A stretch of 64,000 nt of DNA from a virus (lineage: Duplodnaviria > Caudoviricetes): the IMG/VR virus record IMGVR_UViG_3300012203_000001, positions 1,085 through 65,084 of that record; one strand, 5' to 3'. Positions 475-64,000 of this stretch are shown here, piece by piece. Numbering within the stretch: the stretch's first letter is position 1; every line of letters begins with the position of its first letter. The translations under genes and the position numbers were made by a program. The notes under the pieces are model-generated. The model worked only from the letters and a program-made list of their open reading frames with translations, was not told the origin of the DNA and ran no database searches.

Positions 475-678
475 TCATTTGATTCGGTGTTTTCGCGCGA
501 ACTTCTGCAGCGATAGCCAGTGGTAGAGCTCGGGCGTCTTGCGCCGATGTATCCAGTTTGAGACGACTTGTTCAGCGACACCAATCTCTTGCGCGATTTC
601 TCGCGCCCTCCCCCGTTCTTCCTTGCACCAACGCAACAGTTTTTGCATAAACTGATCAACCTCGTCTTGTGGGGGCAT
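475..678 (-). CDS. Cro/XRE-like HTH transcriptional regulator, divergent from the tra operon
   Basis: AREIAQEIGVAEQVVSNWIHRRKTP is a Cro-type HTH; probable ATG at 678. Confidence 0.75.
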   Translation of the reverse strand: MPPQDEVDQFMQKLLRWCKEERGRAREIAQEIGVAEQVVSNWIHRRKTPELYHWLSLQKFARKHRIK

Positions 679-716
679 CGGGGCGAGCGTAGAAAACTTT
701 AGAGTCACGTTGCAAG

Positions 717-778
717 TTTTCCCACAGAATAAAATAAATTCAATCTTTTGTGCTTGCGTAAACGTTTCTTATGGAATA
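717..778. promoter_or_regulatory. Divergent tra promoter region with two TTC-N5-GAATA operator-like sites
   Basis: TTTTC-CCACA-GAATA (717-731) and GTTTC-TTATG-GAATA (764-778) in an AT-rich intergenic region; the motif recurs at 8513 and 17332. Confidence 0.55.
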
Positions 779-784
779 ATTCTC

Positions 785-1141
785 ATGTCGAATCGAATCA
801 GGAAAACAATGAAAGAACCAGATCCAAAGAAAGCTGTTGTAAAGAAACCGTTTAAATCGCGTAACACCGCGCCAGCGTTTACATCGATCGAGAACGCCAG
901 CGATGACGAGGTTAACGTTGCTGTGAGCCAGGCAACCTATCGCAACGCGTTCGTGCAGGCGTTAGCCGCGCTGGAAACTGGAAAAGGGTTGAAAGTCGAG
1001 GGCGATTTCAATCGGCTGCGTGCGGCCGCATCTGGATTTTCCAAAAAGTCTGGAAAACAGTTTTTAGTGCGCAAAAGTAAAGAGAACGGGCTTGTGATTG
1101 TTGTGCGAACCGAGGACGTGATTGTTCCGGCCGCACCGTAA
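785..1141 (+). CDS. Hypothetical basic protein, possibly DNA-binding; first gene of the tra operon
   Basis: ORF 710..1141, likely ATG at 785 or 809; Lys/Arg-rich. Confidence 0.55.
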   Translation: MSNRIRKTMKEPDPKKAVVKKPFKSRNTAPAFTSIENASDDEVNVAVSQATYRNAFVQALAALETGKGLKVEGDFNRLRAAASGFSKKSGKQFLVRKSKENGLVIVVRTEDVIVPAAP

Positions 1142-1152
1142 GAGGAAACGTT

Positions 1153-1338
1153 ATGGAGCCAACTATTTATCAGGTCACGAAACTTGCCCGGACACCGGAG
1201 GAACGCGACCTAATCATCGCGATGACCTCCAAAACATCGATGCAAAAGCTGATCGCTAAATTGTCGGAGCAATACCTCGGCGATCGGTATCGCGTGCCGG
1301 CGTTTCAACACAAAATTTTACCGGGATTTGAGAGATGA
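1153..1338 (+). CDS. Hypothetical protein
   Basis: RBS GAGGA upstream; stop overlaps the pilin start (ATGA). Confidence 0.55.
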   Translation: MEPTIYQVTKLARTPEERDLIIAMTSKTSMQKLIAKLSEQYLGDRYRVPAFQHKILPGFER

Positions 1339-1601
1339 ACTACGAATTTACCTTATTCATGGCGGCTGGGCTCGGCCAAGCGTTAGGTGCTGCGGGCGGG
1401 ATTATTCAAGGCATTGGTCTGATCGCCGTGTTTGGAGGCCTTATCAGTGCTGCGGTGAGTGCGTTAAGCGAACGCCATTTGGCCGGTGTAAAGACTTCGC
1501 TTGTGATCGCTGCGATTGGCGGGATGGCGTGGTTGATTGCTACTGCGTTCTTTACTGCTGGAGGGGCGAACGTCAACATCACGTTGGGCGGCGTCAACTA
1601 A
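1335..1601 (+). CDS. VirB2/TrbC-like conjugal pilin
   Basis: 88 aa, Gly/Ala-rich, two hydrophobic helices, upstream of VirB3/VirB4. Confidence 0.7.
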   Translation: MNYEFTLFMAAGLGQALGAAGGIIQGIGLIAVFGGLISAAVSALSERHLAGVKTSLVIAAIGGMAWLIATAFFTAGGANVNITLGGVN

Positions 1602-2656: not shown

Positions 2657-5227
2657 ATGAGTTTAATTATTCCAGACGGTTATTTTTTCCAAGACCACCT
2701 TATATGGGGCGATTTAGGAAAAGGTGGAATTTTATCAAGGGGATATGAAGTCCAGTTTCCAGATTTAAGCGCTAGCGACGATGATGTTTATACTTCTCTT
2801 GAAACTGATATCCGACTGATGCTCGGGAGCCTTAGGGCTGATGAACAACTTCAGTTAATATACTTTACATCGAGTGATTTTAGCGAGCCACTAAACCGCT
2901 ACGAATCGGAGACAGTTAAGTCACTGATTGCGATTTGCAGCGACGTTCGTGCCGAGTTAGTCCAGCGGTTCAGGCAACGGATGGCTACCGAGACGTTGAT
3001 TCAAGGCGAAACGCGACTTTGGGTTTCCAGTAAGCTTCCAGGTTTTGCGAAGGAGGATGGGAGAACGGTCCGCGGATTTGACCAGGTTTCTAAGGTTGTA
3101 TCACGATCATTTGAACAGCGCTCATTGTTCTGGAATCTTCTTCTAAGTAGTTACGGTGGCAGCGTTAAAGCGCTGGACAATATCGGGCACTACGATGAGC
3201 TTTTAAAGTTCTGGTCTCCGGGGCAATCACGTTACCCACGGTGCGGCGATTTGGATTGGTTACGTCCAGTGTCAGATCTTTGTCGCTTTAGTGACATTGC
3301 ACCGCGGATGGCGCCTGAGTGCGGCTTTTATTTGGATGGCCAAGTTGTCGGCGTAATGGTCTTTAAGACGATGCCTCGATCGACGTGGATGAAGACGATG
3401 GAGGTGTTCTCATCACTGACTATTCCAGGGCTGCGTGTGATCGTGAACATGCAACCTCTACCAATCGATAATGAGATAAGGTATGAGGAGGAACGTTTCT
3501 CGAAACTCGTCAGTAATATAGATCCAAAGTCTCCAAATCTTCAGTCGGAAGTAGGATTAGATAAGCATAGAGATCGTATGCGCCGCCTGCTGAGCAATCA
3601 AACCGTTCCTTTTATGGCGCAAATTATTGTAATTGCGCATGATCGGACGAGGGATGGTCTCGATGGAAAAATGGAAGCGATTCGCGCGGCGATCGGGAAA
3701 AGTGGATGCGAAACGTATCAACCTTTGGTTCCGACTTCGGTTATTGCGTTTTTTAACTGTGCAGCCATGGGCTTCGGTCCGTGGGTTAGATATCGTGATT
3801 TTTATCACAAGATAGATGACCTCAACCTTGCAAACATGTGGTTAGCGGCTGGGTCGACGCCTCGAGCAGATCTCGAAGATGCAACTTGGATCACTGACGG
3901 ACACCTCAACAACCTTATAGGTGGCCGTTGTTTCATCGGGGCGCAGCCGCTCCACATGCTTGTCGCGGCGACAACCGGGGCTGGTAAGAGTGTGCTCTTG
4001 CAAACGTTGGTGCTACAGACGGCGCCACAATTCAAGTTTATCGTCGTGATCGATGATGGGCTTAGCTGGATGACGACTTGTCAAAAGCTCGACCCAACGC
4101 GCCAGCCTATCATCGTGCGCTCGAACGGCGACCAAACATTCAACGTGTTCGATACTAGGCGTCAACCCCTATCGAATGAGCACTTGGCGAGCGCAACGGC
4201 GCTCGTGCATTTGCTCGTGGGCCAACACGCAGATGGCGACAAGGACAAGCTTAGGCACGCGGTGATCGCGGAGACGATTTCTGATGTTTATCGGTCGGCA
4301 TTCAGGCGGTGGCGCAAGAATAATCCGCAAGCGCACTATGATCTGTGCGTTAAGTATGGTGAAGAACAGGAAGGCGAAGATCTAGTGATGGACAATTCGT
4401 TTGCGCAATGGACGCCGGATATGTTCCCTACCCTGTTTGATCTGCAGGATGAGTTGCACGCGGAGGCAACCCAAAAAGGGCCACACCAAGATTTGTGCGC
4501 GACGCTTGCCAGTCTGTTGCGGCCGTGGCTTAGGGACGGGATTTATGGTCCGATCGTTGATGGCGCGAGCAACGTTGATCTCGGTAGTACGGATATCTCG
4601 GAATCCGATCCGCTCAAAGTCGTTCACTTCGAGCTTGGTGAGATGGGTGAGAGCGAATCCGAGCTCCGCGCTGTGGTCGGCTTTTTGATCACTAATGAGG
4701 TGCGTAACCATATCCAGGGAATGCCGCGCGGATTGCGCAAACAAGTGGTGATCGAGGAAATGGTGTCCTTCCTTAAAATTCCAAACGCCGAGGAGATCAT
4801 TGTCGATTACTGGCAGAAGATGCGCAAATATAATGCGCAGATGGTTGCCGTATTCCAGAACTATTTAACGCTTTTGGAAGCGAGCCCGAAAGTAGCCAAG
4901 GCGATCGTTTCGAATTCATCGGCCATGTTGCTGTTGCGTAATCATAACAGACAAGACTTGGAGGCATTAAGCGAATTTTTGGCACGTCCTTTGCCGGAAG
5001 TGATCAAAGATCACATCACGCGGTTCCCGAAACCGAATGAGTTCACAAATCGGGACGAAGCGTATGCCGGCTTTGTGTATGTGCAGCTCGGTAACGAGGA
5101 GCCTCGATATACGGTCGGGCGCAATTACATAAGCCAACTAGTCGAGGATATTACCAGTTCTTCCGGCGATGATTTTGAGCGGAAAAAACAGGAGTTAAAT
5201 AAAATAGTCAGGATGGACGCGGCATGA
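2657..5227 (+). CDS. virB4: VirB4-family T4SS ATPase
   Basis: 856 aa; Walker A ATTGAGKS, VIDDGLSW, Walker B VVIEEM, MRKYN..Q, AIVSNS motifs. Confidence 0.9.
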   Translation: MSLIIPDGYFFQDHLIWGDLGKGGILSRGYEVQFPDLSASDDDVYTSLETDIRLMLGSLRADEQLQLIYFTSSDFSEPLNRYESETVKSLIAICSDVRAELVQRFRQRMATETLIQGETRLWVSSKLPGFAKEDGRTVRGFDQVSKVVSRSFEQRSLFWNLLLSSYGGSVKALDNIGHYDELLKFWSPGQSRYPRCGDLDWLRPVSDLCRFSDIAPRMAPECGFYLDGQVVGVMVFKTMPRSTWMKTMEVFSSLTIPGLRVIVNMQPLPIDNEIRYEEERFSKLVSNIDPKSPNLQSEVGLDKHRDRMRRLLSNQTVPFMAQIIVIAHDRTRDGLDGKMEAIRAAIGKSGCETYQPLVPTSVIAFFNCAAMGFGPWVRYRDFYHKIDDLNLANMWLAAGSTPRADLEDATWITDGHLNNLIGGRCFIGAQPLHMLVAATTGAGKSVLLQTLVLQTAPQFKFIVVIDDGLSWMTTCQKLDPTRQPIIVRSNGDQTFNVFDTRRQPLSNEHLASATALVHLLVGQHADGDKDKLRHAVIAETISDVYRSAFRRWRKNNPQAHYDLCVKYGEEQEGEDLVMDNSFAQWTPDMFPTLFDLQDELHAEATQKGPHQDLCATLASLLRPWLRDGIYGPIVDGASNVDLGSTDISESDPLKVVHFELGEMGESESELRAVVGFLITNEVRNHIQGMPRGLRKQVVIEEMVSFLKIPNAEEIIVDYWQKMRKYNAQMVAVFQNYLTLLEASPKVAKAIVSNSSAMLLLRNHNRQDLEALSEFLARPLPEVIKDHITRFPKPNEFTNRDEAYAGFVYVQLGNEEPRYTVGRNYISQLVEDITSSSGDDFERKKQELNKIVRMDAA

Positions 5228-5239
5228 AGGACTAATTAG

Positions 5240-5596
5240 ATGAACGTTAACGATGTCAAAGTGGTAGGCAACCTTGTAACAAAGCCCGAGGTGCAGTTTA
5301 CGCCTAAGGGCGTGCCGGTGACGACTGTTGCCGTAGGCGTAAATGAGACGATGCCAGGTCAAGAAAAGAAGCAAGTAACGACATTTTTGGATGTTCGTGT
5401 CTGGGGCCAGAGTGCCGAGAACCTGGCTAGGCTTGCAGCTAAAGGTCAAGAGATTTTTGTCGAGGGAGCGTTGCGCCAGGAGCAATGGCAAGACAAAGAG
5501 ACTGGTAAACCGCGCTCAAAGCTTTTTTTGAATGCCAGTAGTTGGCAGTTTACGCAACGCAAACCGGCGACGCCGAATCAAGGGATGGAACGATGA
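5240..5596 (+). CDS. ssb: Single-stranded DNA-binding protein
   Basis: N.V.VVGNL..PE..FTP.G..V, VWG..AEN, KG..IFVEG.L....W.DK.TG..RS OB-fold pattern. Confidence 0.93.
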   Translation: MNVNDVKVVGNLVTKPEVQFTPKGVPVTTVAVGVNETMPGQEKKQVTTFLDVRVWGQSAENLARLAAKGQEIFVEGALRQEQWQDKETGKPRSKLFLNASSWQFTQRKPATPNQGMER

Positions 5597-5973
5597 AAGC
5601 GACATTGCTCATCGTTGTGGTTGCGGTTGCCGGGTGCGCAAATCATCCGTTGCCGAACAGCCAAACCGCAAGTGAACGCTTTTCAACGCTGGGCGGTGGT
5701 GAACGCCGAATTGCTCGCGAGTTCTACGATTTTGGATCTGGCGATGCCATTAAGCGGCTTTTTTGGGCACAGCGCAGGATGCAAGAACAGGTCCACGGCG
5801 ACACCTCGGACGCGCAACCGACACGATTGCAGCGGAAGTACGTGGTGTTACCGGTGCCGGAACACATTGAGCCTGATGGCACGATTAAGGAAGCAAACAA
5901 CCAAGTGGTTGAGGTTGTGCAACTCTGGTCGGTTACGCGGAGTCATGGTCGAAACCTTTTTATTGTAAAATGA
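5593..5973 (+). CDS. Conjugation-associated lipoprotein
   Basis: MKATLLIVVVAVAGC lipobox; ATGA overlap with ssb. Confidence 0.7.
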   Translation: MKATLLIVVVAVAGCANHPLPNSQTASERFSTLGGGERRIAREFYDFGSGDAIKRLFWAQRRMQEQVHGDTSDAQPTRLQRKYVVLPVPEHIEPDGTIKEANNQVVEVVQLWSVTRSHGRNLFIVK

Positions 5974-6791
5974 AAACACAAATCATAGCGGTGAGCATTT
6001 TGGCTGGGCTGGTGTTTAGCGCTCGTGCCACGATCATAACTCATGACCCGTATAGCATGGCGCAGAACGCCGTCCATGAAGTGATCAACATCGTGAAGTA
6101 TGCAGGGACGCAAATCAAAACAACCGAGACGGCGCTCAACACTCTCAGGACATACGAGCAGCAAGTTGTACAACTTGCGCGGCTCGGCAACCCGGCTGCG
6201 CTACGTGCGCTTCCAGGTGTTAGCACGGTGGCTGAACTTTACGGTACTGGCCAACAACTCATGTACAATTACCAGAGTTGGCAGCAGTACCTAAACCCGC
6301 AACGATACCAGGGCGACATGAACTACATTTTAAGTTCATACCGGCAACCGAACTGGCAAGGATATAGCACATATTCCGGCTACAATGTTGCACCAAGCCA
6401 AGGTCTTTACCAGTTTGACACAGCGCGGTACAACATCGCGCAGGCCGGGAGCGATGAGCTGAAACAACTAGAACAGCAACGGCAACGACTTGAACAACAA
6501 CGGGACGTAGCGATGCAATCATTGCAATCGGCATCAACTGATGCGCAGGTCAAAAAGTATCATGGCGTTTTGGACGGGTTAAATGGCGCTCTTGCCGAGA
6601 TTGGTGCCCGGGCAAACGAGGTGGCGCACCGCGTGGCGATCAAAGCGCAGCAGATTAATGCCGGACAACAAGTTTATAGCGCTTCGCAGGCTGAGCAACG
6701 CGCGGCTGCGGCTTATAAAGGTATTGACACCGATCTTCAAGCGTTGCCGGCCGACAATTTCAGAGAAATGCATTTATGGAGCGGTAGATAA
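5970..6791 (+). CDS. VirB5/TrbJ-like minor pilin
   Basis: Signal peptide, IITHDP motif, Gln-rich coiled coils, upstream of VirB6. Confidence 0.7.
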   Translation: MKTQIIAVSILAGLVFSARATIITHDPYSMAQNAVHEVINIVKYAGTQIKTTETALNTLRTYEQQVVQLARLGNPAALRALPGVSTVAELYGTGQQLMYNYQSWQQYLNPQRYQGDMNYILSSYRQPNWQGYSTYSGYNVAPSQGLYQFDTARYNIAQAGSDELKQLEQQRQRLEQQRDVAMQSLQSASTDAQVKKYHGVLDGLNGALAEIGARANEVAHRVAIKAQQINAGQQVYSASQAEQRAAAAYKGIDTDLQALPADNFREMHLWSGR

Positions 6792-7090: not shown

Positions 7091-8491
7091 ATGCTAGCGG
7101 TCGATTTCTTGCAATTGATGCCAGGGTTCGAGACTGGGGCGAGTACACTCCATAATATTCTGATCGGGGTAACGCTCGTGCTGTCGTTCTGCGGACTGCT
7201 TTTGCTGGTCAGTCAGGGATTACGCGAGAAATCTACGCATAACATTTTACCGACTCTGGTGCGTTTGGCTGTGATCGTCATCATGGTTGGCAGTCTTGGC
7301 GCTTGGGGGAATCTGTTAGTAGATGGCGTCAACGATGTTGTGGCGCAGATGGGGTTAAATGGCATTGGTGGCGGAATCTTCGCGGCCTATCGAAACGCGG
7401 TAGCTCGCAAGTTTGGCAGTGACGGCGCAGCGCAGCAAGGCGGCCAACAGCAACAAGCGCCACAACGAAGCTTGTATTCAAATGGCGGATTAACGCCGTC
7501 AGCGAGCGGAATTCAATTGAACCATTACGGGTATGAGCAACCGGGCTCACCAAATTACGACAAGGCTTCAGCTGATGGCCGTGGCGCGTTTACGTTTGAT
7601 ACCGAGCAAGGAAGCTTGGTGCCGCTACAATCAGCGGCGCTTTCGAGCGATGTCGTTCAGGCGTACAACTTGCAACCAGGCCAAGCGTTTACGGTTAGCG
7701 CCGGCGGCCAGACCTATAATTTGATTTATGCGGACAAGACGGCCGATTATATTCAAGGCTCGGTTGATATTTATGATCCGCACCAGCAATTAGGCAGCAA
7801 TCAGCTTGTAGGCCTAACATCAATGCAAGACGGCCCTGTGGAGCAAGGCGGCGACGGGGGTCCGCTCGGCGGCTGGATTTCCAAGCTTGGCGACTCGCTC
7901 ACGGTCGGGTTGTTGTACCCGCTTGTGCATCTCCTAAGTTTGATCGCGCTCGGAATCATGTACTTGATGCAAGCAGTTCAGCAAATTTTGTATACAGTCG
8001 AAATTGCCGTTTCCCCGATTTTTATCGGGATGATGATGATCCCGCGATTGGTCGGGATCGCTACTCGGTTCTTTTGCAGTCTTGTGTCGATCTGTTTATG
8101 GGCGCTCGGGTGGGCGATATGCGATTTACTGACGCGTGCATTGATCGGGTTCGCCATTAACCCGACAAACAATCTCGCATTGAGCGCGTTCTCTGGGGCT
8201 TCAATGATGCTTGGGTACTGGGTGTTGCTCGCGGTCTGGGTGATTGGGAGCTCGTTCGTTGCGCCTCTTATTATTTCTGGTCTTATCGTTGGTGGTGGTG
8301 CCGGGGTATTGGCACCTGTATTCGGTGCGACGGTTGGTGCAATGGCCGGGATGGCGGCAGGAGGTGGTCGGCAAGCTGCGAGTGCAGCGGTCGGGGTTGC
8401 TGCGGCTCCAATATCGGTAGCGTCATCGAGCGCAATGAATGCGTTTCAAAGTTTTGCCAGGAGGCCGAAAAGTAATACGATCGGAAAATAG
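7091..8491 (+). CDS. virB6: VirB6/TrbL-like polytopic membrane protein with an inserted soluble domain
   Basis: Multiple TM helices, VSPIFIG motif, Gly/Ala-rich C-tail typical of TrbL. Confidence 0.8.
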   Translation: MLAVDFLQLMPGFETGASTLHNILIGVTLVLSFCGLLLLVSQGLREKSTHNILPTLVRLAVIVIMVGSLGAWGNLLVDGVNDVVAQMGLNGIGGGIFAAYRNAVARKFGSDGAAQQGGQQQQAPQRSLYSNGGLTPSASGIQLNHYGYEQPGSPNYDKASADGRGAFTFDTEQGSLVPLQSAALSSDVVQAYNLQPGQAFTVSAGGQTYNLIYADKTADYIQGSVDIYDPHQQLGSNQLVGLTSMQDGPVEQGGDGGPLGGWISKLGDSLTVGLLYPLVHLLSLIALGIMYLMQAVQQILYTVEIAVSPIFIGMMMIPRLVGIATRFFCSLVSICLWALGWAICDLLTRALIGFAINPTNNLALSAFSGASMMLGYWVLLAVWVIGSSFVAPLIISGLIVGGGAGVLAPVFGATVGAMAGMAAGGGRQAASAAVGVAAAPISVASSSAMNAFQSFARRPKSNTIGK

Positions 8492-8538: not shown

Positions 8539-8832
8539 ATGGACCACGCGCATCAATTTCACCGAGCTGGCGACGAGCACATATGGCTTAACCCGGATGG
8601 CTTGTTTTTCGCGGCCTTATTTGTGTGGTCAATGCTTGGGCTGTGGCTCTATTTGGATCTTCGCCATAAGGAGCAAGTTTGCGGTGTGGTTCTATTATTC
8701 ATCGCAGGGCCGGCTGCGTGGCTAACGGCTATTTGGAATGCAGTTCACCGACATGTCGTTGAGCAACGGTTAGCGCGTAAACGGGCCATCATACGGCGCC
8801 GTGAACATCGGGAGCACTGGGGAAGGAATTGA
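8539..8832 (+). CDS. Hypothetical membrane protein
   Basis: Two TM segments, basic C-terminus; stop overlaps the next start. Confidence 0.55.
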   Translation: MDHAHQFHRAGDEHIWLNPDGLFFAALFVWSMLGLWLYLDLRHKEQVCGVVLLFIAGPAAWLTAIWNAVHRHVVEQRLARKRAIIRRREHREHWGRN

Positions 8833-9422
8833 GCGCGCTTGTTTCCATGTTGAAAAGACGACTGGCAATCACTTGGCTAGGTTGGGTGGTTGCTGGTCTG
8901 GCGTTGATTGCGATCCCGGTGAGCAATCACCTCACGTTGATGGCCGCTATGTCGCAGATGCGCTTTGTCGCGATGGATTCAAGGGATACTTTTTATCTTG
9001 GAAACATGGGCAGTTTCGAGACGGCGCAGCACATCCACGCGGAGCTTGCCAGGATGGCGGCGGAAACAATTTTCAGCCGGAACCCGGACGGATACGATGA
9101 TCCGGAACGGCTTGAGCGGCTTTTCAACCCGGCAACGGCGGCGGCTTTAAATAAGGACGCGGCTCGTGATGCCGACGTTTTTAGGGCGCAACAGGTACAC
9201 CAGAAGGTCGAGACCGGCCAGATTCGAGAGCTGAGTGTCGATAGCAACACGGCGCTCGTGTCAATTGAGGGTCAGGTTTTAAAGACCGGCATTTTTAATG
9301 GTCGCATAGTGAATGACGCGAAGAAGGTGACAGTGTTCCTACGGCTGACGATCAATGGAGATATGGCACACAACGGCCGGTATCCGTTGGTAGTGACAAA
9401 TTACGAGGAACGGTTCGAATGA
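8829..9422 (+). CDS. VirB8/TrbF-like protein
   Basis: Single N-terminal TM followed by an NTF2-like periplasmic pattern ending NGRYPLVVTNY; upstream of VirB9/VirB10. Confidence 0.7.
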   Translation: MSALVSMLKRRLAITWLGWVVAGLALIAIPVSNHLTLMAAMSQMRFVAMDSRDTFYLGNMGSFETAQHIHAELARMAAETIFSRNPDGYDDPERLERLFNPATAAALNKDAARDADVFRAQQVHQKVETGQIRELSVDSNTALVSIEGQVLKTGIFNGRIVNDAKKVTVFLRLTINGDMAHNGRYPLVVTNYEERFE

Positions 9423-54651: not shown

Positions 54652-54727
54652 TTGTCTCGAACCCGGCCCATTCCGCAGCTATCCCAAAGCCGTTGATGCC
54701 GGTGAAAAGCGCTAGGTGAGTTAGCAT
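53795..54727 (-). CDS. DNA cytosine-5 methyltransferase, alpha frame (motifs I-VIII and X)
   Basis: LFTGINGF, EID, GDI, AGVPCQP.S.AGKR.G..D.R.LW, ENP, H.R.RVF, RLKALGNSV. Confidence 0.92.
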   Translation of the reverse strand: MLTHLALFTGINGFGIAAEWAGFETIGFSEIDPYCCKLLNEKWTNIRNWGDITRADFSLLRGRVDVLSAGVPCQPASLAGKRRGASDDRWLWPATCDVVESVQPAWCIFENPDGILSLGEFAGVLSRLGALRYAVRAFRVPASALGAGHQRYRVFTVAYNNSAERWPRESGGHVDNGQEAGWEQSSNGSTAHDQVGVVTDSANGGIRRRQSQGEPGQFARSCETNGHAFGSVLEERQSFIEHCRAQFPATQRTGDKQHCLRGFWYAEPALCGGVPRIPNRSHRLKALGNSVCPFQAYPFFEAIAQAENRE

Positions 54728-55176: not shown

Positions 55177-55809
55177 CCAAATATAAGATCACCAGTACAG
55201 CAACAGCAACCAGTGTCATGGCAACGTTTTTCATAGCGCATGCAGAAAAATCATAATTGTCGCTATGAGCGCGAGAAACGCGGCAACGTACCCGAAATGT
55301 ACCCAAAGAAAGTCAAGGATGCGTTTCATTTGTGTAGCAACAGTTCTTTTTGTTTCAGTAGTAATAAGCACTGGTCGCAAATGCCGTGCGTAACATCCGT
55401 GCGCGATAAATCGTGTTCATGTGTAACCCTGATTACAGGCTGATTCCCTTTGTGTATCCCAGCCCAGTCAGCACAGCGAACGATGATCACCGGTCTCGCT
55501 TTCTACGATAGTACGGCGATCGTGAATGAAAGAGCAATCGTTGTGCTTCTCGGTCTTGTTTGTCGGCTTTCGCCATCTGAATGGCCGCGCCGGCCAGCAC
55601 GGCGAAGCCTGTCATAACGAGGATGATAAGGATGAAAAATATTTCCATAGCTAGTTTTGCGAGTGTTCGTAGTTGTGTTGTTTAGTTTTAACCTTGTTCA
55701 TGATCGGCACGGCGTTAAGCCAAAGTCGGCGTTCGACGAATCGGCCAAGGCGGTAGAAGAAATAGGCGCCGAAAAGGAACAGGAGAAATGAGATCAGGGG
55801 TTCCATTTG

Positions 55810-56976
55810 TCATTCGAGTTGTTTTACCGTTGCCGTTCCATTTACGCGCTTGAGCGATGGCTTGTTCTGCTTGGTTTCGATAAGGCCATCCATAAGTTTA
55901 TCGAACGCTTCACGCACCTCTTTCGGGTCGCGGTTAAAGTTTTGCGCATAAATCTTTTGGTATGCTGCCGGAGTATGGGTCTTCAATTTGTCGACCTCCG
56001 AATACCTGTCGGAACCGTCCATAATAAACAATTCACGCATTCGGGATTTTGCAGCCGCAACGTCCATAAACTTTCGGTTCTCCGCGCCCGGAACCATTGC
56101 GTACCCGGTGATCTTGAGCGTTGGCGGGTTGGCTAAGAGGCCGGCCTCGCAGTACGCTTTGAATTCGTCCAGGTAATCTCTGATTACGTCGATTGAGTCC
56201 AGACTTTCAGCTAGGCGACGCGGGTCATGTGAAATCGCGCTTGCCCGCGTCTTTGTGATGGGCGCCAGCAAGTCTTTGGCCGCCTGGCATATCAATAGTG
56301 CCGGACAATAGTTGCACGCGTCTGGGTGCGGTGTGAGCGCGGCGTTAGGCCGTTCCAATTGGACCAGCATATCAACGATCCAGTTGTAAATGTCGCGGAG
56401 CTCACCCCAGGAGAACTCAGTCTCGAAGACCCCGAAGGGGATCGTAACGAGTTGGACGATAAAGCGTTGTGGCCGGATACCTGCTTCCGCTAGCGCCATC
56501 GCTACCAATACCGCCTCGACTCTGGACTGGCTGTTTAGCCTTACAGGGTCCGGCTCGCGCCAGCCTGTTTTAAAATTGATCGTTAAGGCGGTATTATCGT
56601 TATAAACCGTGCGATCAAATCGGCAGGAAACCGAAAGGCTTGATTTCTTGGTATTAAACCACAGGCGGCGCTCGACCAAAACATTGCGCGCGGTTCCTTC
56701 GCCAAAGATGCGATCTTCCTGTTCGTCGGCTCGCGCCTTGAGTGCTTCGGCATCTGCAAGTGTGTCTGGCTCAAGCTCCACGCTTTCACCGGCTAACCAC
56801 GCATGGATCTTTGTGCCTCGATCCGCATCTTTCCCGCCAATGTGCGCCACCTGCCCGAGCCGGCGTGCCTCCTGTTCCATTTGAAACGAGCCCTTGCAAA
56901 GATCGTACCTCGGGAATGCGCTTGCCGATGGCATATTTCTCCGCTCATCAATAGGTTGTTCAATAACATCGCTCAT
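55810..56976 (-). CDS. PD-(D/E)xK Cas4-like exonuclease (DUF2800-like)
   Basis: SAS......C.GS, A..GT.IH, E.RL, FKTG, C.YCPA...C. Confidence 0.8.
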   Translation of the reverse strand: MSDVIEQPIDERRNMPSASAFPRYDLCKGSFQMEQEARRLGQVAHIGGKDADRGTKIHAWLAGESVELEPDTLADAEALKARADEQEDRIFGEGTARNVLVERRLWFNTKKSSLSVSCRFDRTVYNDNTALTINFKTGWREPDPVRLNSQSRVEAVLVAMALAEAGIRPQRFIVQLVTIPFGVFETEFSWGELRDIYNWIVDMLVQLERPNAALTPHPDACNYCPALLICQAAKDLLAPITKTRASAISHDPRRLAESLDSIDVIRDYLDEFKAYCEAGLLANPPTLKITGYAMVPGAENRKFMDVAAAKSRMRELFIMDGSDRYSEVDKLKTHTPAAYQKIYAQNFNRDPKEVREAFDKLMDGLIETKQNKPSLKRVNGTATVKQLE

Positions 56977-57045
56977 AAAAAGTGTGCGTCGCTGGTTGAT
57001 CAATCCTCTCGCCGGCGACGCTGCGGCGTGCTGGTCCCAGAAGGG

Positions 57046-57552
57046 CTAGAACGGAATGTTATCTGGTTCGAGGGAGTCCAGATCCGGGTCGTGCGGCCGG
57101 CTTGGCAATACTGACGCGCTCATCGCGTTGGGCCGGCGCGTAACTTCCTTGGTTGGCCGGATATCGGTCGCAAACACGTAATACCCGATCTTATTGACTT
57201 CCTTCCCGGCCAGCTTGCCTTGCTGTGCGATCTCAATCTTGATGCGCGCGCGGCCCTTGGCTCCGACGAGCTTATTCCATGCGGGTTCCTGGCCAATTGC
57301 CGGTGCGCGTCCGCATGCCTTAAGGAACTGCGCGATCTTGTCGAATGGTTCACCGTGCTTGTCGGTGCCTGCGGATGGATTATCATAGATGTGGGCTTTC
57401 TCAGGGCCTACTTGCAGTTTCAATGGCAGCACATCATTACCTTTGGTTGATTCGTACGGTTCACCGGCCTCGAGGACCGTGAAATCATAGGTGCCTTCAG
57501 GTATTGGTCCAAAGACGGGTGCTGGTGCTGGCTCGTTGTATTTATAGGACAT
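57046..57552 (-). CDS. Phage ssDNA-binding protein (DUF669-like)
   Basis: IPEG.Y......S.KGN..L.L and acidic C-terminus DNIPF. Confidence 0.75.
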   Translation of the reverse strand: MSYKYNEPAPAPVFGPIPEGTYDFTVLEAGEPYESTKGNDVLPLKLQVGPEKAHIYDNPSAGTDKHGEPFDKIAQFLKACGRAPAIGQEPAWNKLVGAKGRARIKIEIAQQGKLAGKEVNKIGYYVFATDIRPTKEVTRRPNAMSASVLPSRPHDPDLDSLEPDNIPF

Positions 57553-57589
57553 AGGTGTTGGTGGTTTTTAGAAGTGAATGCAGTTAGTG

Positions 57590-58438
57590 TTATTTGGCGT
57601 AAAACTCTCTTACGGCGTCCTCAAGTGCTTGCCATTCAAGTGGCATGCTGTCAGGGAGATTAAAGCGGTTTTTAGCCTCGTACCCTGTGGCTGGCGTGGT
57701 CCTGATAATGCGCTCACCGCTCATTACGCCCTTCCCCTTACGGTCCGCAGGGCGGTTTTTCTGGAGCTCGATATCCATCGAGGCGAACAGGATGTTGTCT
57801 ACCATTTCGCGCAGGACATCGGCCGACTTATCGTGCAGCTTGATTTTCCAGACATCGTAGGGTGCGGTTAGTGTCGGATCGGTGAAGGATTTAACATGTG
57901 CGTGCGCGAGGATAATAACGTTGAAACGTTCGCTCATGTCGGAGAGTTGGGTTAGTAACCCGCGCCATGTGCTTCGCGCCGCTGTGTACCCGTCGCCATA
58001 CTTAGGTTCCTCGATTGATTGCACCTTCTTTTTGGCGCATACCCGGGCCCACACGAGCGCCTCGAGGGCGTCGGCCGTATCGATTACGATTGTCTGGTAG
58101 GGATGATCCTCAGTGTCGAGCGTAAGGAGCTGTTTCCAGAACTCTTCGAACGTGCGCGGCGTCGGGAAGGATTCGACATCCAGTTGATCAATTGAGCGTT
58201 CAACCGGGATAAAGATTGGTCGTGGCGATTTACTGGCAAACGTTGATTTGCCGATTCCTGGCGCGCCGTAAAGCAGCGTCATAATCGGCCGGACACGTTT
58301 CCCGGTTCGAATATGGGAGAGCAGGCTTGGTTGCTCGGGTTTCCGTGTCTCCTCAGCCGCTTGCGCGGTAAACGGGTTCTCGTCGGTTTGAGTTTGGGAA
58401 TTGGTTGGCGGCTCGGCGACCGCAATAGGGTTACTCAT
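57590..58438 (-). CDS. Sak4-like AAA recombination ATPase
   Basis: LYGAPGIGKSTFA, TIVIDT.D.LE, YG.GY, AH, AKNR..LP. Confidence 0.9.
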   Translation of the reverse strand: MSNPIAVAEPPTNSQTQTDENPFTAQAAEETRKPEQPSLLSHIRTGKRVRPIMTLLYGAPGIGKSTFASKSPRPIFIPVERSIDQLDVESFPTPRTFEEFWKQLLTLDTEDHPYQTIVIDTADALEALVWARVCAKKKVQSIEEPKYGDGYTAARSTWRGLLTQLSDMSERFNVIILAHAHVKSFTDPTLTAPYDVWKIKLHDKSADVLREMVDNILFASMDIELQKNRPADRKGKGVMSGERIIRTTPATGYEAKNRFNLPDSMPLEWQALEDAVREFYAK

Positions 58439-58534
58439 TTTAATAAAGTTTATTGTTGTATGGTACGGCACAGTAAAGTACTTTGCGCCATGGTCAACGG
58501 AAAAGAAAAAAAATCTTTGAGAGAAAAGTTTTAC

Positions 58535-58747
58535 ATGCGTTCCGGCCTCGCTAAACAGCTCGGCATTCAGAATTCAGCCGTCGATCGGCTGATGCTTCGG
58601 GACATTATCGTGCCGGATGCGTGGGTGATCCTTACATCGTCACTGGAGCAACCGCTCTTTAATGCGGACCGGCTCGTAGAAATCAGAGCGGATGTTGAAA
58701 CCCACTATGCACACCTGGAAGCGGCTCGGCTGCAGTTTGCCAAGTAA
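58535..58747 (+). CDS. Small DNA-binding protein (excisionase/MerR-like)
   Basis: LAKQLGI...V.R......I.PD......PLF; first rightward gene after the divergent intergenic region. Confidence 0.5.
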   Translation: MRSGLAKQLGIQNSAVDRLMLRDIIVPDAWVILTSSLEQPLFNADRLVEIRADVETHYAHLEAARLQFAK

Positions 58748-58764
58748 AAATATGAAAGCTTGCC

Positions 58765-60186
58765 ATGAACAATGGAAACGAGCAGCCGACGCCGATGCCG
58801 TGCAGCGAAGATGGGGAACGCGGGTTGCTTTGTTCTTTGATTTTAGCGCCGGACAAAGTCCACAAGGCTTGTGCGGCCGTGTTACGGACTGAAGCGTTTT
58901 ACATTCCTGCGCACCGTTTGATTTACGAAGCGATCGCCGAGTGGACGCACCCGGAACGGGAGGTCGATTTTCTGTGGCTTATTGAGACGCTTCGAGGCCA
59001 AGGAAAACTAGAGGAGGCAGGTGGCAAAGTCTATTTAAGCGAGCTCTGGGACTTTGTAAAAACGGATGCGAACCACGAGTTTTATTTGGGCCGAGTACTG
59101 GACACTTACTACCGGCGGGAAGGCATTATAGCCGGCAAGGAATGGGTCAATAATCTGTATGACACAAAAACGGAGTGTAGCGCATCGATCCCTATTTTCG
59201 AACGGAAACTAGCAAGAGTTACTCAAGGGATAGCCAATGCGCGCAACGATTCGCTTTTGGAATGTCTCTGTGCTGGAACATGCACAAGTGATGCGCTGGT
59301 GGCGCTTGACCCGATCCCGCGTATTCCAGTGATAGACGACTGGTGTTGCGCCGCCGATCTCGGGTACATCTTCGCGGCCCGCGGATTGGGCAAGACATGG
59401 CTGGCGATGCACCTCGCACACGGCGTTGCCGTGAAGCAGAAAGTAGGTCCCTGGCCCATCCACAAGCAATTGAAGGTATTGTACCTGGATGGCGAGATGC
59501 CAGCGGCTGAGATCAAACGGCGCGATTACGCGCTTGGAGCACCAACGGACGCTTTAGCGTACATCAATCACGAGATTCTTTTCGAACGCACCGGAAAAGT
59601 CATGAATCTCGCTGACCCTGAGTTTCAGGAGGCAACCATTACCATGTGCCGTGTCAAAGGGTTCGAGATGCTCTGCATGGATAACCTTTCAACCTTGGCC
59701 AGCGGCATCGACGAAAACAAGACGATCGATTGGGAGCTCATCCAACCGTGGCTATTGCGGCTTCGTCGGGAACGAATCACGGTCATTTTCATTCATCACG
59801 CCGGCCGTAATAACGAGATGCGCGGGGTTTCCAAGCGCGAGGATCCGGCCAGTTGGATCTTGCGCCTTGACGAGCCAAACGACGCCAGTGACCAGAAAGG
59901 CGCCCATTTTATCAGCCGGTTCACGAAATGGCGCAACGCGATGCGCCAGCCGCGGACTTACGAATGGATCTATTCGCCAGGCGATAACGGGGAAACCCTT
60001 GTTGAAGTCAAAGAAGCGTCCTCAATCGAGATCTTTAAACGCCTGATAGAGAACGGGCTCGATACCTGCACAATGTTGGCCGACGAGATGAACGTTTCGG
60101 CTGGGTACGTCAGTCAGTTGGCTACGCAGGGCGAGAAAGAAGGGTGGCTGGCTAAAAAGTCGCGAAAGTACGTGATCACAAACTAA
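58765..60186 (+). CDS. Replicative helicase: DnaB N-terminal domain + RepA/AAA_25-type ATPase + C-terminal wHTH
   Basis: P.S.D.E..LL..L, FY..AH..IY.AI, L...G.LE..GG..YL; AARGLGKT, VLYLDGEM, DNLS.L, HHAG.....RG.S.RED. Confidence 0.85.
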   Translation: MNNGNEQPTPMPCSEDGERGLLCSLILAPDKVHKACAAVLRTEAFYIPAHRLIYEAIAEWTHPEREVDFLWLIETLRGQGKLEEAGGKVYLSELWDFVKTDANHEFYLGRVLDTYYRREGIIAGKEWVNNLYDTKTECSASIPIFERKLARVTQGIANARNDSLLECLCAGTCTSDALVALDPIPRIPVIDDWCCAADLGYIFAARGLGKTWLAMHLAHGVAVKQKVGPWPIHKQLKVLYLDGEMPAAEIKRRDYALGAPTDALAYINHEILFERTGKVMNLADPEFQEATITMCRVKGFEMLCMDNLSTLASGIDENKTIDWELIQPWLLRLRRERITVIFIHHAGRNNEMRGVSKREDPASWILRLDEPNDASDQKGAHFISRFTKWRNAMRQPRTYEWIYSPGDNGETLVEVKEASSIEIFKRLIENGLDTCTMLADEMNVSAGYVSQLATQGEKEGWLAKKSRKYVITN

Positions 60187-60224
60187 ATGGAAAACTAAAT
60201 AGTTGGTAAACGACAGAGGAAAGA

Positions 60225-60647
60225 ATGAGTAAACAAAGCAAAAACGAGCTTAAAATGAATTCAGATGACCAGTTAAAGTGCGCCTATTGCGGAGCGCGAA
60301 TTGTACCAAAAATACTTCCTTATCGAACAGATACGGGACTCAGGCCGATCGACATCTTTAAAGCCTTAGTAAGGGATGGAATGAATACTTGCTCAGAGAT
60401 CGCGGCCGCAATGAACGTGACAGGAGGGCGCGTAAGTCAGTTGGCGACTCGCGCTGAAAATGAAGGGTGGATTAAGAAAAAAAAGCGCAAATATTTATTT
60501 ACTGATTATCAACGACTTATAAAAGCTCGTTTGGTAGAGCAATCTCATCAAGTGGCTAAGAATCAAGGAGTTACAAAATGTGAAGACGAAGATTCGTTTG
60601 ATTATGAGGGTTGGTTAAGTAAGTTTTTTACTAGCGCAAGTGTCTAA
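60225..60647 (+). CDS. wHTH protein paralogous to the helicase C-terminus
   Basis: 28/49 identical residues to the end of 58765..60186. Confidence 0.65.
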   Translation: MSKQSKNELKMNSDDQLKCAYCGARIVPKILPYRTDTGLRPIDIFKALVRDGMNTCSEIAAAMNVTGGRVSQLATRAENEGWIKKKKRKYLFTDYQRLIKARLVEQSHQVAKNQGVTKCEDEDSFDYEGWLSKFFTSASV

Positions 60648-61137: not shown

Positions 61138-61191
61138 AAATCGTAAGCTAAGCCTCTGGTGGTGCGTTTGACATGGAGAAAATAAATGGTT

Positions 61192-61243
61192 TGATCGGGC
61201 CGGCCGGATTTGAACCGGCGATCTCTTGAACCCCATTTAAGCG
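61192..61243 (-). other. attP core: 3' half of tRNA-Pro(GGG)
   Basis: Reverse strand CGCTTAAATGGGGTTCAAGAGATCGCCGGTTCAAATCCGGCCGGCCCGATCA = anticodon loop, T arm and 3' acceptor strand; no 5' half; ~60 bp upstream of int. Confidence 0.85.
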
Positions 61244-61302
61244 TTTTTAATGGTTTTTATGCTTGTCGCAAAAACGATAAGAACAATAGCATCTATAGCG
61301 TT

Positions 61303-62136
61303 ATGCAAGCACTGGATCGGTACTTGGATTTTAAATGCCAACGGCTCTCGCCCAACTATTTCCGTGACCTAGCCACAGTCCTCAATGCTTGGTCCCGCGA
61401 TTTTGTATCTCTAGACGTTGTTTCAACCGAATCTCTCCAAACTTGGGCCGATCACAAACGGGAATCCGTCAAGGTGTCTACCGTCGCCGCGTATCTCTTC
61501 TCGATCCGCAAGTTCTTTGACTGGCTGATCGCCGAAAAACTTGTTACCGGCAACAACCCGGCCGTTGGCGTCTTTCTCCCCCGTCACCGCAAACCGTTTC
61601 GGAAAGTCTTCGTCTCTTGCGCCACCGTTAAAATGCTGATCGGCGAGTGCCAGGACCAGGAACTCAAGTATTGCCTCTTCTGTGGATTTCACGCCGGTCT
61701 CCGCTTTAACGAGGTCGTGATGTCACGCCCAGAATGGTTTAGCCTGCCCGAGGCACTCCTCCACGTTACCCGTTCCGAGGACTGGGACACCAAAGATCAC
61801 GAGGATCGCACCATTCCAATCACCGATGATTTCCTCGCGTTCCTTCGCGTGTACGGTCTCCGTGTCCCTTGGATGATCGCGCCAGGGAAGAAGCCGGGCG
61901 GAAGGTCCCGCTACCGGTTCGATTTCGGTCGCCGTTTCGAGAATTACGTAGCCCGCAAAAACGTCCACATGTGCTTCCATGATTGCCGGCGCACATTCGC
62001 CAGTTTGCACGCCACAGCAGGCACGTCGCTACTGAAAATTGCTCATTGGCTCGGTGATGATTACGAGACCGTAGAGCGCCATTACGCCCATCTCGCGCCT
62101 GCGGATATGGAGATCAATCGCGCGTTTTCAGCGTAA
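61303..62136 (+). CDS. int: Tyrosine integrase
   Basis: SAM-like N-domain, HAGLR..E, TK...R.IP, FHDCRRTFAS, WLGD......HY.HL catalytic residues. Confidence 0.92.
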   Translation: MQALDRYLDFKCQRLSPNYFRDLATVLNAWSRDFVSLDVVSTESLQTWADHKRESVKVSTVAAYLFSIRKFFDWLIAEKLVTGNNPAVGVFLPRHRKPFRKVFVSCATVKMLIGECQDQELKYCLFCGFHAGLRFNEVVMSRPEWFSLPEALLHVTRSEDWDTKDHEDRTIPITDDFLAFLRVYGLRVPWMIAPGKKPGGRSRYRFDFGRRFENYVARKNVHMCFHDCRRTFASLHATAGTSLLKIAHWLGDDYETVERHYAHLAPADMEINRAFSA

Positions 62137-62214
62137 CACCTTATCAATGTGTTAAACTGTTTCACGCGAAACATTGTTGCGTTTTACGGCGCTTTGCGTT
62201 AAATCGCCTCTTTA

Positions 62215-63498
62215 GTGTCCACAGTTGTCCAAACGACCTTTCTAGAGCAAGTCCCAATCGCTCAACTGGTTCCGTGTGTTACCAATCCGCGGCTTCATCC
62301 GGAACCCAATGTTGCCAAGCTCATGCAATCGATCCAGGTGTACGGGTGGACCACGCCAATCCTGGTTACTGATGGACTCGAGGTGATCGCTGGCCACGGT
62401 CGGTTATTGGCCGCGCAAAAGCTCGGGATTGAGTTGGTGCCGTGTATCCGGCTTAAGCACCTGACGCCGGCGCTTGTGAAAGCTTATCGAATCGCCGATA
62501 ACCGGCTGACGCTGGATTCGGACTGGGACGATGAACTGCTGGCCAGCGTGATGGCCGATTTACACACTGACCAGGACTTTGATCTGGCGCTTACCGGGTT
62601 TGATCCGGAAGAGATCGGCGACTTTCTCGGGTTCAGCGACCCGCAAGCTGGTGAGGACGATACGCCGGCTATTCAGGAAATCGCGGTGTCGCGGCTGGGC
62701 GATGTCTGGGAGATGGACGGGCACCGGCTGATTTGCGGGGATTGTACGGATGGGGTGGTTGTGTCTGCGGTATTGAATGGCGTGAAACCACTTGTTTTAG
62801 TAAGTGATCCTCCGTATGGCGTGCGATATGATCCAAGTTGGCGCGAGGATTTACCATTTGGTGTAAAACGCGATCAATACATGAATCGTCAAGGCGATGA
62901 GATTAAAGGCGATGAAATAGCTGATTGGTCAGAAGCTTTTAAAATCGTTAGTGCTGACGTTATTTATATTTGGCACGCGCCTGGAGCTCTTTCCATGAAA
63001 GTGATGGCTGGGATTGAACGGATAGGCTACCAAATTCGAGCGACTTTAATTTGGGTTAAGGAGCACGCTGCGCTTTCGCAAGGACACTATAGCTACCAGC
63101 ATGAACCGTGTTGTTATGCCGTGCTTAAAGGAAAAATCGCCAATTGGCACGGTAACGCTTATGAATCATCAGTGATGCACATAAATATGGTGAAAGCGCA
63201 TTCTGGGGAAGATTTTGTTAGTGATCATGGATGCCAAAAGCCTATCGAATGTATGCGGCGCCCAATCGTGAACCACACGGTTCCTAGTGACGCTGTTTAC
63301 GATCCGTTCATGGGCTCTGGCACCACGCTAATTGCCGCCGAGTCAACGCACCGTGTGGCCTACGGCTGCGAGATTGAGCCGCTCTATGTCGATATGGCCG
63401 TCCGCCGCTGGCAAATGTTTACCGGCCACGCAGTGCGATTGTCTGGCGATGGCAGAACCTTCGAGGAGATTCAGGATGCCAGGGGCTCACAAACTTGA
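62215..63498 (+). CDS. ParB-like domain + N6/N4 DNA methyltransferase
   Basis: NPR.H....L..SI..YGW..PIL...AGHGRL.AA, IADNRL; SDPPY, H..QKP, DPFMGSGTT. Confidence 0.92.
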   Translation: MSTVVQTTFLEQVPIAQLVPCVTNPRLHPEPNVAKLMQSIQVYGWTTPILVTDGLEVIAGHGRLLAAQKLGIELVPCIRLKHLTPALVKAYRIADNRLTLDSDWDDELLASVMADLHTDQDFDLALTGFDPEEIGDFLGFSDPQAGEDDTPAIQEIAVSRLGDVWEMDGHRLICGDCTDGVVVSAVLNGVKPLVLVSDPPYGVRYDPSWREDLPFGVKRDQYMNRQGDEIKGDEIADWSEAFKIVSADVIYIWHAPGALSMKVMAGIERIGYQIRATLIWVKEHAALSQGHYSYQHEPCCYAVLKGKIANWHGNAYESSVMHINMVKAHSGEDFVSDHGCQKPIECMRRPIVNHTVPSDAVYDPFMGSGTTLIAAESTHRVAYGCEIEPLYVDMAVRRWQMFTGHAVRLSGDGRTFEEIQDARGSQT

Positions 63499-63973
63499 GC
63501 GAGTAGAACGGTCCCGGCGCATCCTGCAGCTTGAGCGTTTCATTTTCCTCGGGCTTTCGCGCCAGGAGATGGCCGAGCGCCTTGGTGTCAATGAGAAGAC
63601 GGTTCGGCGCGATCTCAAGCATCGCTTGGATCAACTAATCAATGAATCCGAGCGATCCACCGTTTCCTACCGTCAAGCGATTCTTCTTGAGCTCGGTCGC
63701 ACGTATGCCGAAGTGATGAAGGATATGGCTGCGGCCCGCACAAGTGGCCAACCCACGCATCCGTACGCCAATACGCGGGTGGATATTATTCGCGTGATTG
63801 CTAGGGTAACCGGGGCCGAACAACCGATTCAGATCGAACACTCAGGCAGCGTGGAACACCACGTCCATATGGTAACGGAGAGCGAGCTCGCGCGCATGGC
63901 GTCGCTTACCAGGGAGATCGAGTCAGAAGTGATTACTGGGAACGGCCAAGGAAATTCACTAGCGCGTTACTAA
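63476..63973 (+). CDS. Probable terminase small subunit
   Basis: HTH GLSRQEMAERLGVNEKTVRRDL, helical core, IEHSG.V..H...ELAR tail; follows ParB-MTase as terS usually does. Confidence 0.7.
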   Translation: MPGAHKLERVERSRRILQLERFIFLGLSRQEMAERLGVNEKTVRRDLKHRLDQLINESERSTVSYRQAILLELGRTYAEVMKDMAAARTSGQPTHPYANTRVDIIRVIARVTGAEQPIQIEHSGSVEHHVHMVTESELARMASLTREIESEVITGNGQGNSLARY

Positions 63974-64000
63974 CCACCGACGATCGCTTGCCGCGAGGGA

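Follow-up and report, generated by a model that had tools for sequence, protein, structure and literature searches.

The stretch of DNA analysed here (the window; 64,000 bases, i.e. bases 1085–65084 of the 65,084-base IMG/VR virus record IMGVR_UViG_3300012203_000001) combines the genes of a tailed phage with those of a conjugation system, and an earlier note had presented it as a candidate 'conjugative prophage'. By its gene content, the window is the nearly complete genome of a temperate phage of the siphovirus type whose head genes are Mu-like, and it carries a near-complete, apparently intact and divergent type IV secretion system (T4SS) together with a type IV coupling protein (T4CP) and a relaxase. 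The window holds 82 open reading frames (ORFs) of at least 60 amino acids (aa), while Pfam scans took in 70 proteins, i.e. the larger ones. The conjugation (tra) block of approximately 20–20.5 kb has the early module (integrase, ParB-methylase) on one side and the packaging genes on the other. A relaxase search of IMG/VR identified one relative, G002 (66,519 b; IMG/VR CheckV estimate 100%), which in reverse complement is collinear with the window over the entire span between the first tra genes and the integrase, and 48 of the 82 ORFs match at 36–79% aa identity. Additionally, the same T4SS gene set and order are found at three chromosomal loci of Verrucomicrobiota (G497, G546 and G619; 25–42% identity) and on the Opitutaceae TAV5 plasmid CP007054 (23–42% identity across the four loci). 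The features of the conjugation block, with the basis of each assignment, are as follows.

1335–1601, + strand: VirB2-like pilin candidate, 88 aa, Gly/Ala-rich with two transmembrane (TM) segments (topology; 67% identical over 57 aa in G002; no hidden Markov model (HMM) match)
1598–1963, + strand: VirB3-like candidate, 121 aa, two TM segments (topology, precedes VirB4; 58% identical in G002; no HMM match)
2150–2647, + strand: HNH_3/AP2 homing-endonuclease-like gene in the tra operon (Pfam; absent from G002)
2657–5227, + strand: VirB4-family ATPase (PF19044, 47 bits; Walker A and B; 58% identical in G002)
5240–5596, + strand: SSB (PF00436, 84 bits)
5590–5973, + strand: lipoprotein with a possible VirB7-like role (lipobox VAGC; 64% identical in G002)
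5970–6791, + strand: VirB5/TrbJ-like candidate with signal peptide and coiled coil (69% identical in G002; 26% match at the same position of the G546 T4SS locus)
7091–8491, + strand: VirB6/TrbL-like polytopic membrane protein, seven TM segments (TM scan; homologues in the T4SS loci of G546, G619 and the TAV5 plasmid)
8829–9422, + strand: VirB8-like bitopic protein, 197 aa (ESM Atlas structure match, TM-score 0.73)
9524–10480, + strand: VirB9/TraK/CagX-family outer-membrane core subunit, 318 aa, secreted (structural model and Foldseek; Pfam match of homologues)
10477–11616, + strand: VirB10/TrbI (PF03743, 46.8 bits, above cut-off)
11835–12305, + strand: second HNH-motif gene in the tra block (motif read; no Pfam match; absent from G002)
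13444–14367, + strand: AAA_2 (ClpB-D2-like) ATPase (PF07724, 89 bits; 41–42% identical to a VirB4-adjoining gene in G497 and G546)
14364–14576, + strand: Lar-type restriction alleviation protein (PF14354, 39.6 bits)
14543–16024, + strand: T4CP of the VirD4/TraG-D family (PF12696, PF10412; Walker A; 79% identical in G002)
17312–17418, + strand: conserved non-coding block of ~110 nt, oriT candidate (78% nt identity to G002)
17451–20252, + strand: TrwC-type (MOBF) relaxase-helicase (PF08751, 108 bits; AAA_30, 119 bits)

The T4SS is a real conjugation-type system on the basis of its gene order, which is that of Verrucomicrobiota chromosomes, and of the fold match of its VirB9-like protein. In a 15-sequence alignment of Verrucomicrobiota homologues of the latter, 12 of the 15 match PF03524 (CagX), and the AlphaFold2 (AF2) model (pLDDT 70) returned a Foldseek PDB top ten consisting entirely of T4SS core-complex subunits (F TraK, DotH, VirB9, TrwF and CagX; best E 1.3e-10), while a profile search of PDB sequences yielded nothing relevant. 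The ESM Atlas match of the VirB8-like protein belongs to a cluster that is 99% PF04335 (VirB8); its AF2 model was poor (pLDDT 50.7), and Foldseek returned nothing for it at E ≤0.001, with IcmL, TcpC and VirB8 entries among the weak rows only. VirB4 matched TIGR02746 at 79 bits and scored far below the cut-offs of the TraC/VirB4 NCBIfam models, and is thus a divergent member of its family; an NCBIfam scan of the small T4SS proteins gave nothing useful. The VirD4-type protein and the TrwC-type relaxase claimed earlier were both recovered, and the relaxase retains the YY and HxD..HxH motifs at its N terminus as well as the Walker motifs of its helicase. The non-coding block upstream of the relaxase gene, whose identity to G002 exceeds that of most aligned coding stretches and which contains an imperfect inverted repeat at 17319–17353, is a putative oriT. 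Furthermore, the single-module AAA_2 ATPase, also found in the G497 and G546 loci, may be the second motor of this Verrucomicrobiota T4SS type. A promoter and terminator scan of 16800–24000 found fewer sites than in shuffled sequence. The two HNH-type genes resemble homing endonucleases that invaded conjugation genes.

It could be argued that this T4SS serves another purpose, such as the delivery of effectors or toxins, adhesion or the mobilisation of other DNA, the relaxase then having a part in the replication of the phage. Some T4SSs do have functions other than conjugation, the bacteria-killing system of 6gyb is among the VirB9 fold matches, an autotransporter is part of the cargo of the element, and the oriT is a candidate only. 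However, the relaxase, with its catalytic motifs intact, is kept together with the T4CP, SSB and Lar, all of which are conserved in G002, and a conserved non-coding block lies directly upstream of it; moreover, the phage possesses its own DnaB-type replication module. Such a use is accordingly regarded as distinctly unlikely.

The features of the phage part of the window, and the small gene at its start, are as follows.

475–708, − strand: small helix-turn-helix (HTH) protein, CI/Cro-like, divergent from the tra operon (weak HTH/Phage_CI_repr matches; 67% identical in G002)
20898–22292, + strand: large terminase TerL (homologues, conserved motif columns, Akkermansia phage match)
22498–22809, + strand: candidate holin, two TM segments (topology, position)
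22817–23518, + strand: GH46-like hydrolase, candidate endolysin (adjoins the two-TM protein)
23898–30580, + strand: head module of Mu portal, MuF, Mu-I protease/scaffold and major head protein (Pfam/PHROG)
23898–25673, + strand: Mu-type portal (PF06074, 220 bits)
26233–27015, + strand: MuF (Pfam/PHROG)
27972–29282, + strand: Mu-I protease/scaffold (PF10123)
29693–30580, + strand: major head protein (Pfam/PHROG)
30608–47113, + strand: connector, major tail protein, tape measure, hub, fibres and GH43/CHB_HEX protein (Pfam/PHROG)
31542–32309, + strand: major tail protein (Pfam/PHROG)
33014–35551, + strand: tape measure (Pfam/PHROG)
35548–37686, + strand: hub (Pfam/PHROG; BR0599 and phiJL001-gp84 domains)
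38021–41662, + strand: fibre (Pfam/PHROG)
51853–60647, strand mixed or unstated: early/replication-recombination module (Pfam)
61190–61245, − strand: 3' fragment of tRNA-Pro(GGG), ~55 nt, candidate attP core (match to tRNA genes of the host group)
61210–62136, + strand: tyrosine integrase, probable ATG start at 61303 (PF02899 above cut-off, PF00589 below)
62215–63498, + strand: ParB_N-N6/N4 DNA methylase (Pfam; directly upstream of TerL in the related loci L086, L087 and L095)

The terL, portal, protease, capsid and tail genes are intact-looking, as had been claimed, with Pfam or PHROG matches throughout except for TerL, which was recognised by its homologues and motif columns. TerL itself had no Pfam match, and a PDB phmmer search matched it to a terminase at no better than E 0.11; among its 704 homologues, many are named 'phage terminase large subunit' at source and two carry PF03237, and the Walker A/B and nuclease Asp columns of the alignment are conserved. 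With the terminases of three Akkermansia phages it shares 34–39% identity, the annotated TerL of Chambord being at 39%. The head gene calls (portal, protease/scaffold, capsid) rest on PF06074, PF10123 and phrog_1005; the portal, protease and major capsid protein (MCP) are 73–77% identical in G002, while MuF has no match there. The lysis genes of the earlier note could be retained as candidates only, i.e. the two-TM protein and the GH46-like hydrolase, since no holin or spanin family match was obtained and the pair (22498–23518) is absent from G002. The early genes (DnaB-like helicase, AAA_24, PDDEXK/DUF2800, VRR-NUC, EndoVII and two methylases, one of them a C5 methyltransferase, with a winged HTH protein) appear ordinary for a temperate phage, and this module is shared with the T4SS-less relatives L003 and L098.

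The integrase (65% identical in G002, 57% in the related locus L083) adjoins the tRNA fragment. When the 621 bases upstream of the integrase were compared with 401 genomes of one Verrucomicrobiota class, 198 matched one stretch of ~50 nt at approximately 75–94%, and in all six loci checked the match was the 3' part of tRNA-Pro(GGG). The window's copy extends from the anticodon stem to the acceptor end with a compensatory swap in the T stem, and the same fragment adjoins the integrase of G002. As the attP of phages and of integrative and conjugative elements (ICEs) usually consists of such a tRNA 3' fragment beside an integrase, the element is very probably integrative; the integrase and attP that had been proposed are thus present, and it is from these two that the designation 'prophage' would follow. 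No second integrase, plasmid Rep, ParA or transposase was found among the 70 proteins scanned with Pfam, in agreement with the earlier claim, and the sole ParB_N domain among them is fused to the methylase. No tRNA gene was found in the window by a tRNA gene search, nor any family by an Rfam scan.

The claim that host genes are lacking stands in so far as the record has no host flanks, while cargo is present in the form of an autotransporter, a GH43 protein and an ETR1_N protein. The first (50093–51406, − strand), in which an autotransporter beta-domain is combined with a long passenger region rich in Pro and Thr, is absent from G002. The second, a large GH43/CHB_HEX/F5_F8 protein after the fibres (43619–47113, + strand), has a homologue in G002 (36% identical; reverse-complement coordinates 25682–27118) between TerL and portal, and is moved cargo or a depolymerase module. 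The third is a 174-aa protein with three TM segments (47059–47583, + strand; ETR1_N, PF25487, 95 bits), carrying an ethylene-receptor-like N-terminal sensor-type domain that is unexpected in a phage.

The first and last 123 bases of the record are identical (exact), whereby it closes to a circle of 64,961 bp. GC content is 0.50–0.52 across all three modules, and tetranucleotide r is 0.85–0.93; megablast of window 1–24000 against plasmids and of 20000–44000 against phages gave no match. In Logan contigs from two soil runs of different studies, 30/30 and 29/30 bins of 10001–30000 were covered. Depth over this interval in run X1, the better of the two, which may be the source sample of the record, was even at 4.5–6.8 except for one bin at 9.4, while the Logan contigs are short and, among the pieces listed, none bridges 20252–20271; the coverage check that had been proposed was therefore positive for evenness (bar that bin) and gave no bridging piece among those listed. 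An assembly chimera of a plasmid or ICE with a phage might be suspected of a short-read metagenome assembly at such low depth (~5x in X1). Against this, the run of the second study holds both modules at ≥99% identity, the window's own VirB8-like protein is recorded on five contigs, the longest of 65,102 b, and the independent record G002 has the same order throughout. As G002 is collinear over its whole length at 64–77% DNA identity, a chimera is considered extremely improbable and the record is taken to be one replicon, with no mis-join of phage and conjugation parts; the break between relaxase and terL that the earlier note had envisaged was not apparent, given the order in G002 and the coverage of both modules in two soil runs. 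The assembly ends of both the window record and G002 fall in the int-to-tra region. Just 5' of the window start, bases 56–1034 of contig G000 contain three short minus-strand ORFs beginning MKPP(K/R)(A/T)E and a fourth, longer ORF with MKPPKA internal, the ORFs having in common a repeated block around the start codon.

The DNA of the window and G002 is 64–77% identical for all but two short matches, with 29 kb alignable; identical figures were obtained for a 66,833-b metagenome contig in GenBank, which is probably the same element as G002. To compare selection on the two modules, non-synonymous (dN) and synonymous (dS) divergence was estimated for 39 ortholog pairs between window and G002, with pairs of <70% cover left out and four dropped owing to a stop at a mis-set ORF start. 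Across the 39 pairs dN was 0.15–0.67, while dS was 0.88–4.6 in 20 (omega 0.04–0.39) and too saturated in 19. The tra genes (T4CP 0.16, VirB8-like 0.22, relaxase 0.22, VirB4 0.33) and the virion genes (TerL 0.15, portal 0.17, MCP 0.17) were alike in dN, and the relaxed selection that was considered earlier is not seen in either. Although synonymous sites have reached saturation, every gene compared, in either module, is still open, and useless genes would not stay open across the distance between window and G002. Both modules are accordingly under purifying selection, and the arrangement is old and kept by selection.

Relatives of the phage were examined at 240 loci retrieved by TerL (80 each from IMG/VR, metagenomes and GTDB; many on short contigs). 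In the DNA examined, tra homologues were found at 0/79 IMG/VR, 0/79 metagenome and 0/80 GTDB loci (TerL 36–58% identity), the only two of the 240 with tra homologues being G002 itself, and no VirB4 was found in five related IMG/VR records searched whole. In L083 (58% TerL identity), L086 and L087 (50%), L095 and L098, an integrase, methylase or DnaB homologue is positioned 0.5–1.4 kb upstream of TerL. The three related IMG/VR records that are 97–100% complete measure 34.0, 41.3 and 43.7 kb, and subtraction of the ~20.5-kb block from 65 kb leaves ~44.5 kb. As TerL relatives lack tra genes, early genes adjoin TerL in them and complete relatives are of 34–44 kb, the tra block is best described as an insertion into a phage backbone.

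The host is probably a soil member of the Verrucomicrobiota. Verrucomicrobiota names are borne in the titles of 70 of the 80 GTDB TerL loci, and the isolated phages closest by TerL (Chambord, DTMo-2021a and Chantilly; 34–39%) infect Akkermansia. The A. muciniphila PLSDB 'plasmid' NZ_AP021899.1 (32.8 kb), whose TerL is 37% identical to that of the window, resembles phage DTMo-2021a and probably represents the circular genome of a phage, catalogued as a plasmid. VirB4 matched 2 of 72,556 plasmids, both of Opitutaceae (23–33% identity), and none of 50,697 phage records. The VirB8-like profile matched 65 of 401 genomes of one Verrucomicrobiota class, and the T4SS type is common in Verrucomicrobiota chromosomes and appears to be of wider occurrence than the phage; phage genes of the window had no match within 25–40 kb around the G497, G546, G619 and TAV5 plasmid T4SS loci. 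The VirB8-like gene falls in at least 120 clusters at ≥71% identity (499 matches), compared with 13 for TerL at ≥70% and 19 for MCP at ≥69% (28 matches), a gap of which gene length and short contigs explain part, not all. The block thus also occurs elsewhere, presumably in ICEs or plasmids of the same hosts, and the phage lineage either captured it from such elements or exchanged it with them.

This excess of T4SS over phage relatives would also be expected if two independent elements, an ICE or integrative mobilisable element inside or in tandem with a prophage, merely travelled together, and phage-ICE tandems have been described in Streptococcus (PMC13651849, abstract). Such nesting is very unlikely, however: a single integrase and a single attP are present among the scanned proteins, the tra block occupies the same place in a relative of 64–77% DNA identity, composition is uniform, and no repeat-bounded island was seen, although none was searched for.

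Taken together, the window is probably an integrative temperate phage that acquired and kept a complete-looking conjugation system, being both phage and ICE. The element would integrate at tRNA-Pro(GGG) and excise as a circle; by one route the excised circle would be replicated and packaged into virions, and by the other a nick at an oriT immediately 5' of the relaxase gene would start its transfer, in single-stranded form, via the T4SS that it encodes. With regard to the one integrative element with two routes proposed in the earlier note, the single element is supported by the one replicon, the single int/attP, the T4SS/T4CP/relaxase set and the evidence of selection, while the dual transfer is what we infer from them.

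Several observations weigh against this reading. No integrated copy with attL and attR was found: there was no close relative in GTDB, a relaxase pattern scan of GTDB genome contigs gave none, the full-length matches of a GTDB TerL scan did not exceed 42% identity, neither of two 401-genome samples contained a close relative, and the relaxase gave 52 matches in 401 Verrucomicrobiota genomes, all at ≤35% identity. Linkage of the two modules is seen in two sequences read, plus one by size fingerprint: a 63,851-b contig whose TerL is 89% identical to that of the window and whose VirB8-like protein is 75% (BLASTP) or 79% (MAFFT alignment) identical, the linkage being judged only from the equal size given for two single-contig clusters. 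Contigs of 114.5, 87.7, 43.4, 36.3 and 27.2 kb carry the VirB8-like gene and are missing from the TerL and MCP lists; because of these five, and because T4SS relatives are far more numerous, most of the T4SS relatives probably have no link to this phage, so that the expected linkage among relatives holds for the collinear G002 and probably not for the majority. The int-tra junction rests on the window's own closure, since the ends of G002 fall in that junction. Within the tra block, which two HNH genes interrupt, VirB4, the VirB8- and VirB9-like proteins and VirB10 are identified by HMM or structure, while the pilin-, VirB3-, VirB5- and VirB6-like calls were made from size, order, conservation (in G002 or G497/G546/G619) and topology (TM segments or a signal peptide). 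Additionally, the T4CP has no N-terminal TM segment in its sequence, no VirB11-type ATPase was found among the proteins scanned, its place being taken by the conserved AAA_2 ATPase (some mating-pair formation types lack VirB11), and no RNA run was among those listed for 15500–25400.

The main question over the favoured reading is whether a capsid can hold the whole 65 kb, given that related phages at least 97% complete are of 34–44 kb. Under the alternative that follows from this, the element would be an ICE or a conjugative plasmid in which the phage part has lost the ability to move the element as a whole, the head taking ~40 kb and carrying partial or random DNA in the manner of a gene transfer agent (GTA), or serving another use. 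MCP relatives at 53–66% identity lie on 42–45 kb contigs, the lysis cassette is a candidate only and is not conserved in G002, and the hub carries BR0599 and phiJL001-gp84 domains, which occur in RcGTA too. Conversely, a full phage set (TerL, replication-recombination genes, integrase, methylases) has been kept and is mostly conserved with free phage relatives, the IMG/VR CheckV estimate for G002 is, as noted, 100%, and the four records taken as tra-bearing (the 68.5-kb one from size and MCP alone) span a narrow 63.9–68.5 kb despite differing cargo, as under a capsid limit. This alternative is considered unlikely. The favoured reading, of an element that is both phage and ICE, may be extended to a stable natural lineage of 'conjugative phages' of Verrucomicrobiota that are also ICEs, with one int/attP circle leaving by capsid or T4SS and with an enlarged capsid, a proposal to which we give slightly less than even chances. 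By arithmetic only, growth of the capsid for the extra ~21 kb would fit a step from T=7 to T=9 (43 kb x (9/7)^1.5 = ~63 kb).

In its gene order (VirB2-3-4-5-6-8-9-10, T4CP, TrwC relaxase) the conjugation block follows VirB/Trw-type ICEs and conjugative plasmids of the MOBF class such as R388 Trw, whose TrwF is matched by the VirB9-like model in 7o3t and 8rt6; it differs in its very divergent sequences, in the AAA_2 ATPase in place of VirB11 and in being embedded in a phage genome. The Akkermansia phages named above share the host phylum, whereas their genomes are of 31–37 kb and, like all phage records searched, have no VirB4 match. Phage-plasmids (P1, N15 and SSU5 groups) are likewise temperate tailed phages with functions of another class of mobile element. 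These persist by plasmid replication and partition genes. None is conjugative according to a 2025 review, which knows of no conjugative phage-plasmid or prophage (PMC12282955), while the window has integrase/attP and T4SS/T4CP/relaxase with no Rep or ParA found. The combination of a phage with a complete-looking conjugation system is, according to that review, unreported, in line with the earlier note's premise that temperate phages and phage-plasmids generally lack complete conjugation systems. The E. coli plasmid p1002-1, called a 'conjugative phage-plasmid' in the SegMantX preprint, joins phage-plasmid and conjugation genes in one replicon; it is described there as having arisen when two plasmids, both known from E. 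coli isolates closely related to each other, fused, whereas in the window's lineage the two members read have kept the arrangement across synonymous saturation. In the streptococcal phage-ICE tandems (PMC13651849) and the 'conjugative prophage' Phi1207.3 (PMC4260502), phage DNA moves by conjugation, and the abstracts describe two-element tandems or a prophage transferring conjugally, neither of them mentioning a phage genome with its own T4SS and relaxase. Our literature search found no tailed phage encoding its own T4SS and relaxase; a single-cell preprint's supplementary list of 'potential phage-plasmid genomes' lay outside that search and may bear on this. Streptomyces pZL12, which came up only in citing papers, is reportedly a plasmid-phage able to transfer by conjugation.

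In accounts of gene flow, phages and conjugative elements count as two distinct routes that differ in cost, host range and cargo limits. If both machineries are indeed kept under selection in this lineage, it would provide a test case for why the two routes are normally not combined, and likewise for how a capsid size limit is accommodated alongside a 20-kb transfer module and how the choice between lysis and mating is made. Furthermore, binary virus/plasmid classifiers file such elements as viruses, as here, and would thereby miss a conjugation route in soil bacteria.

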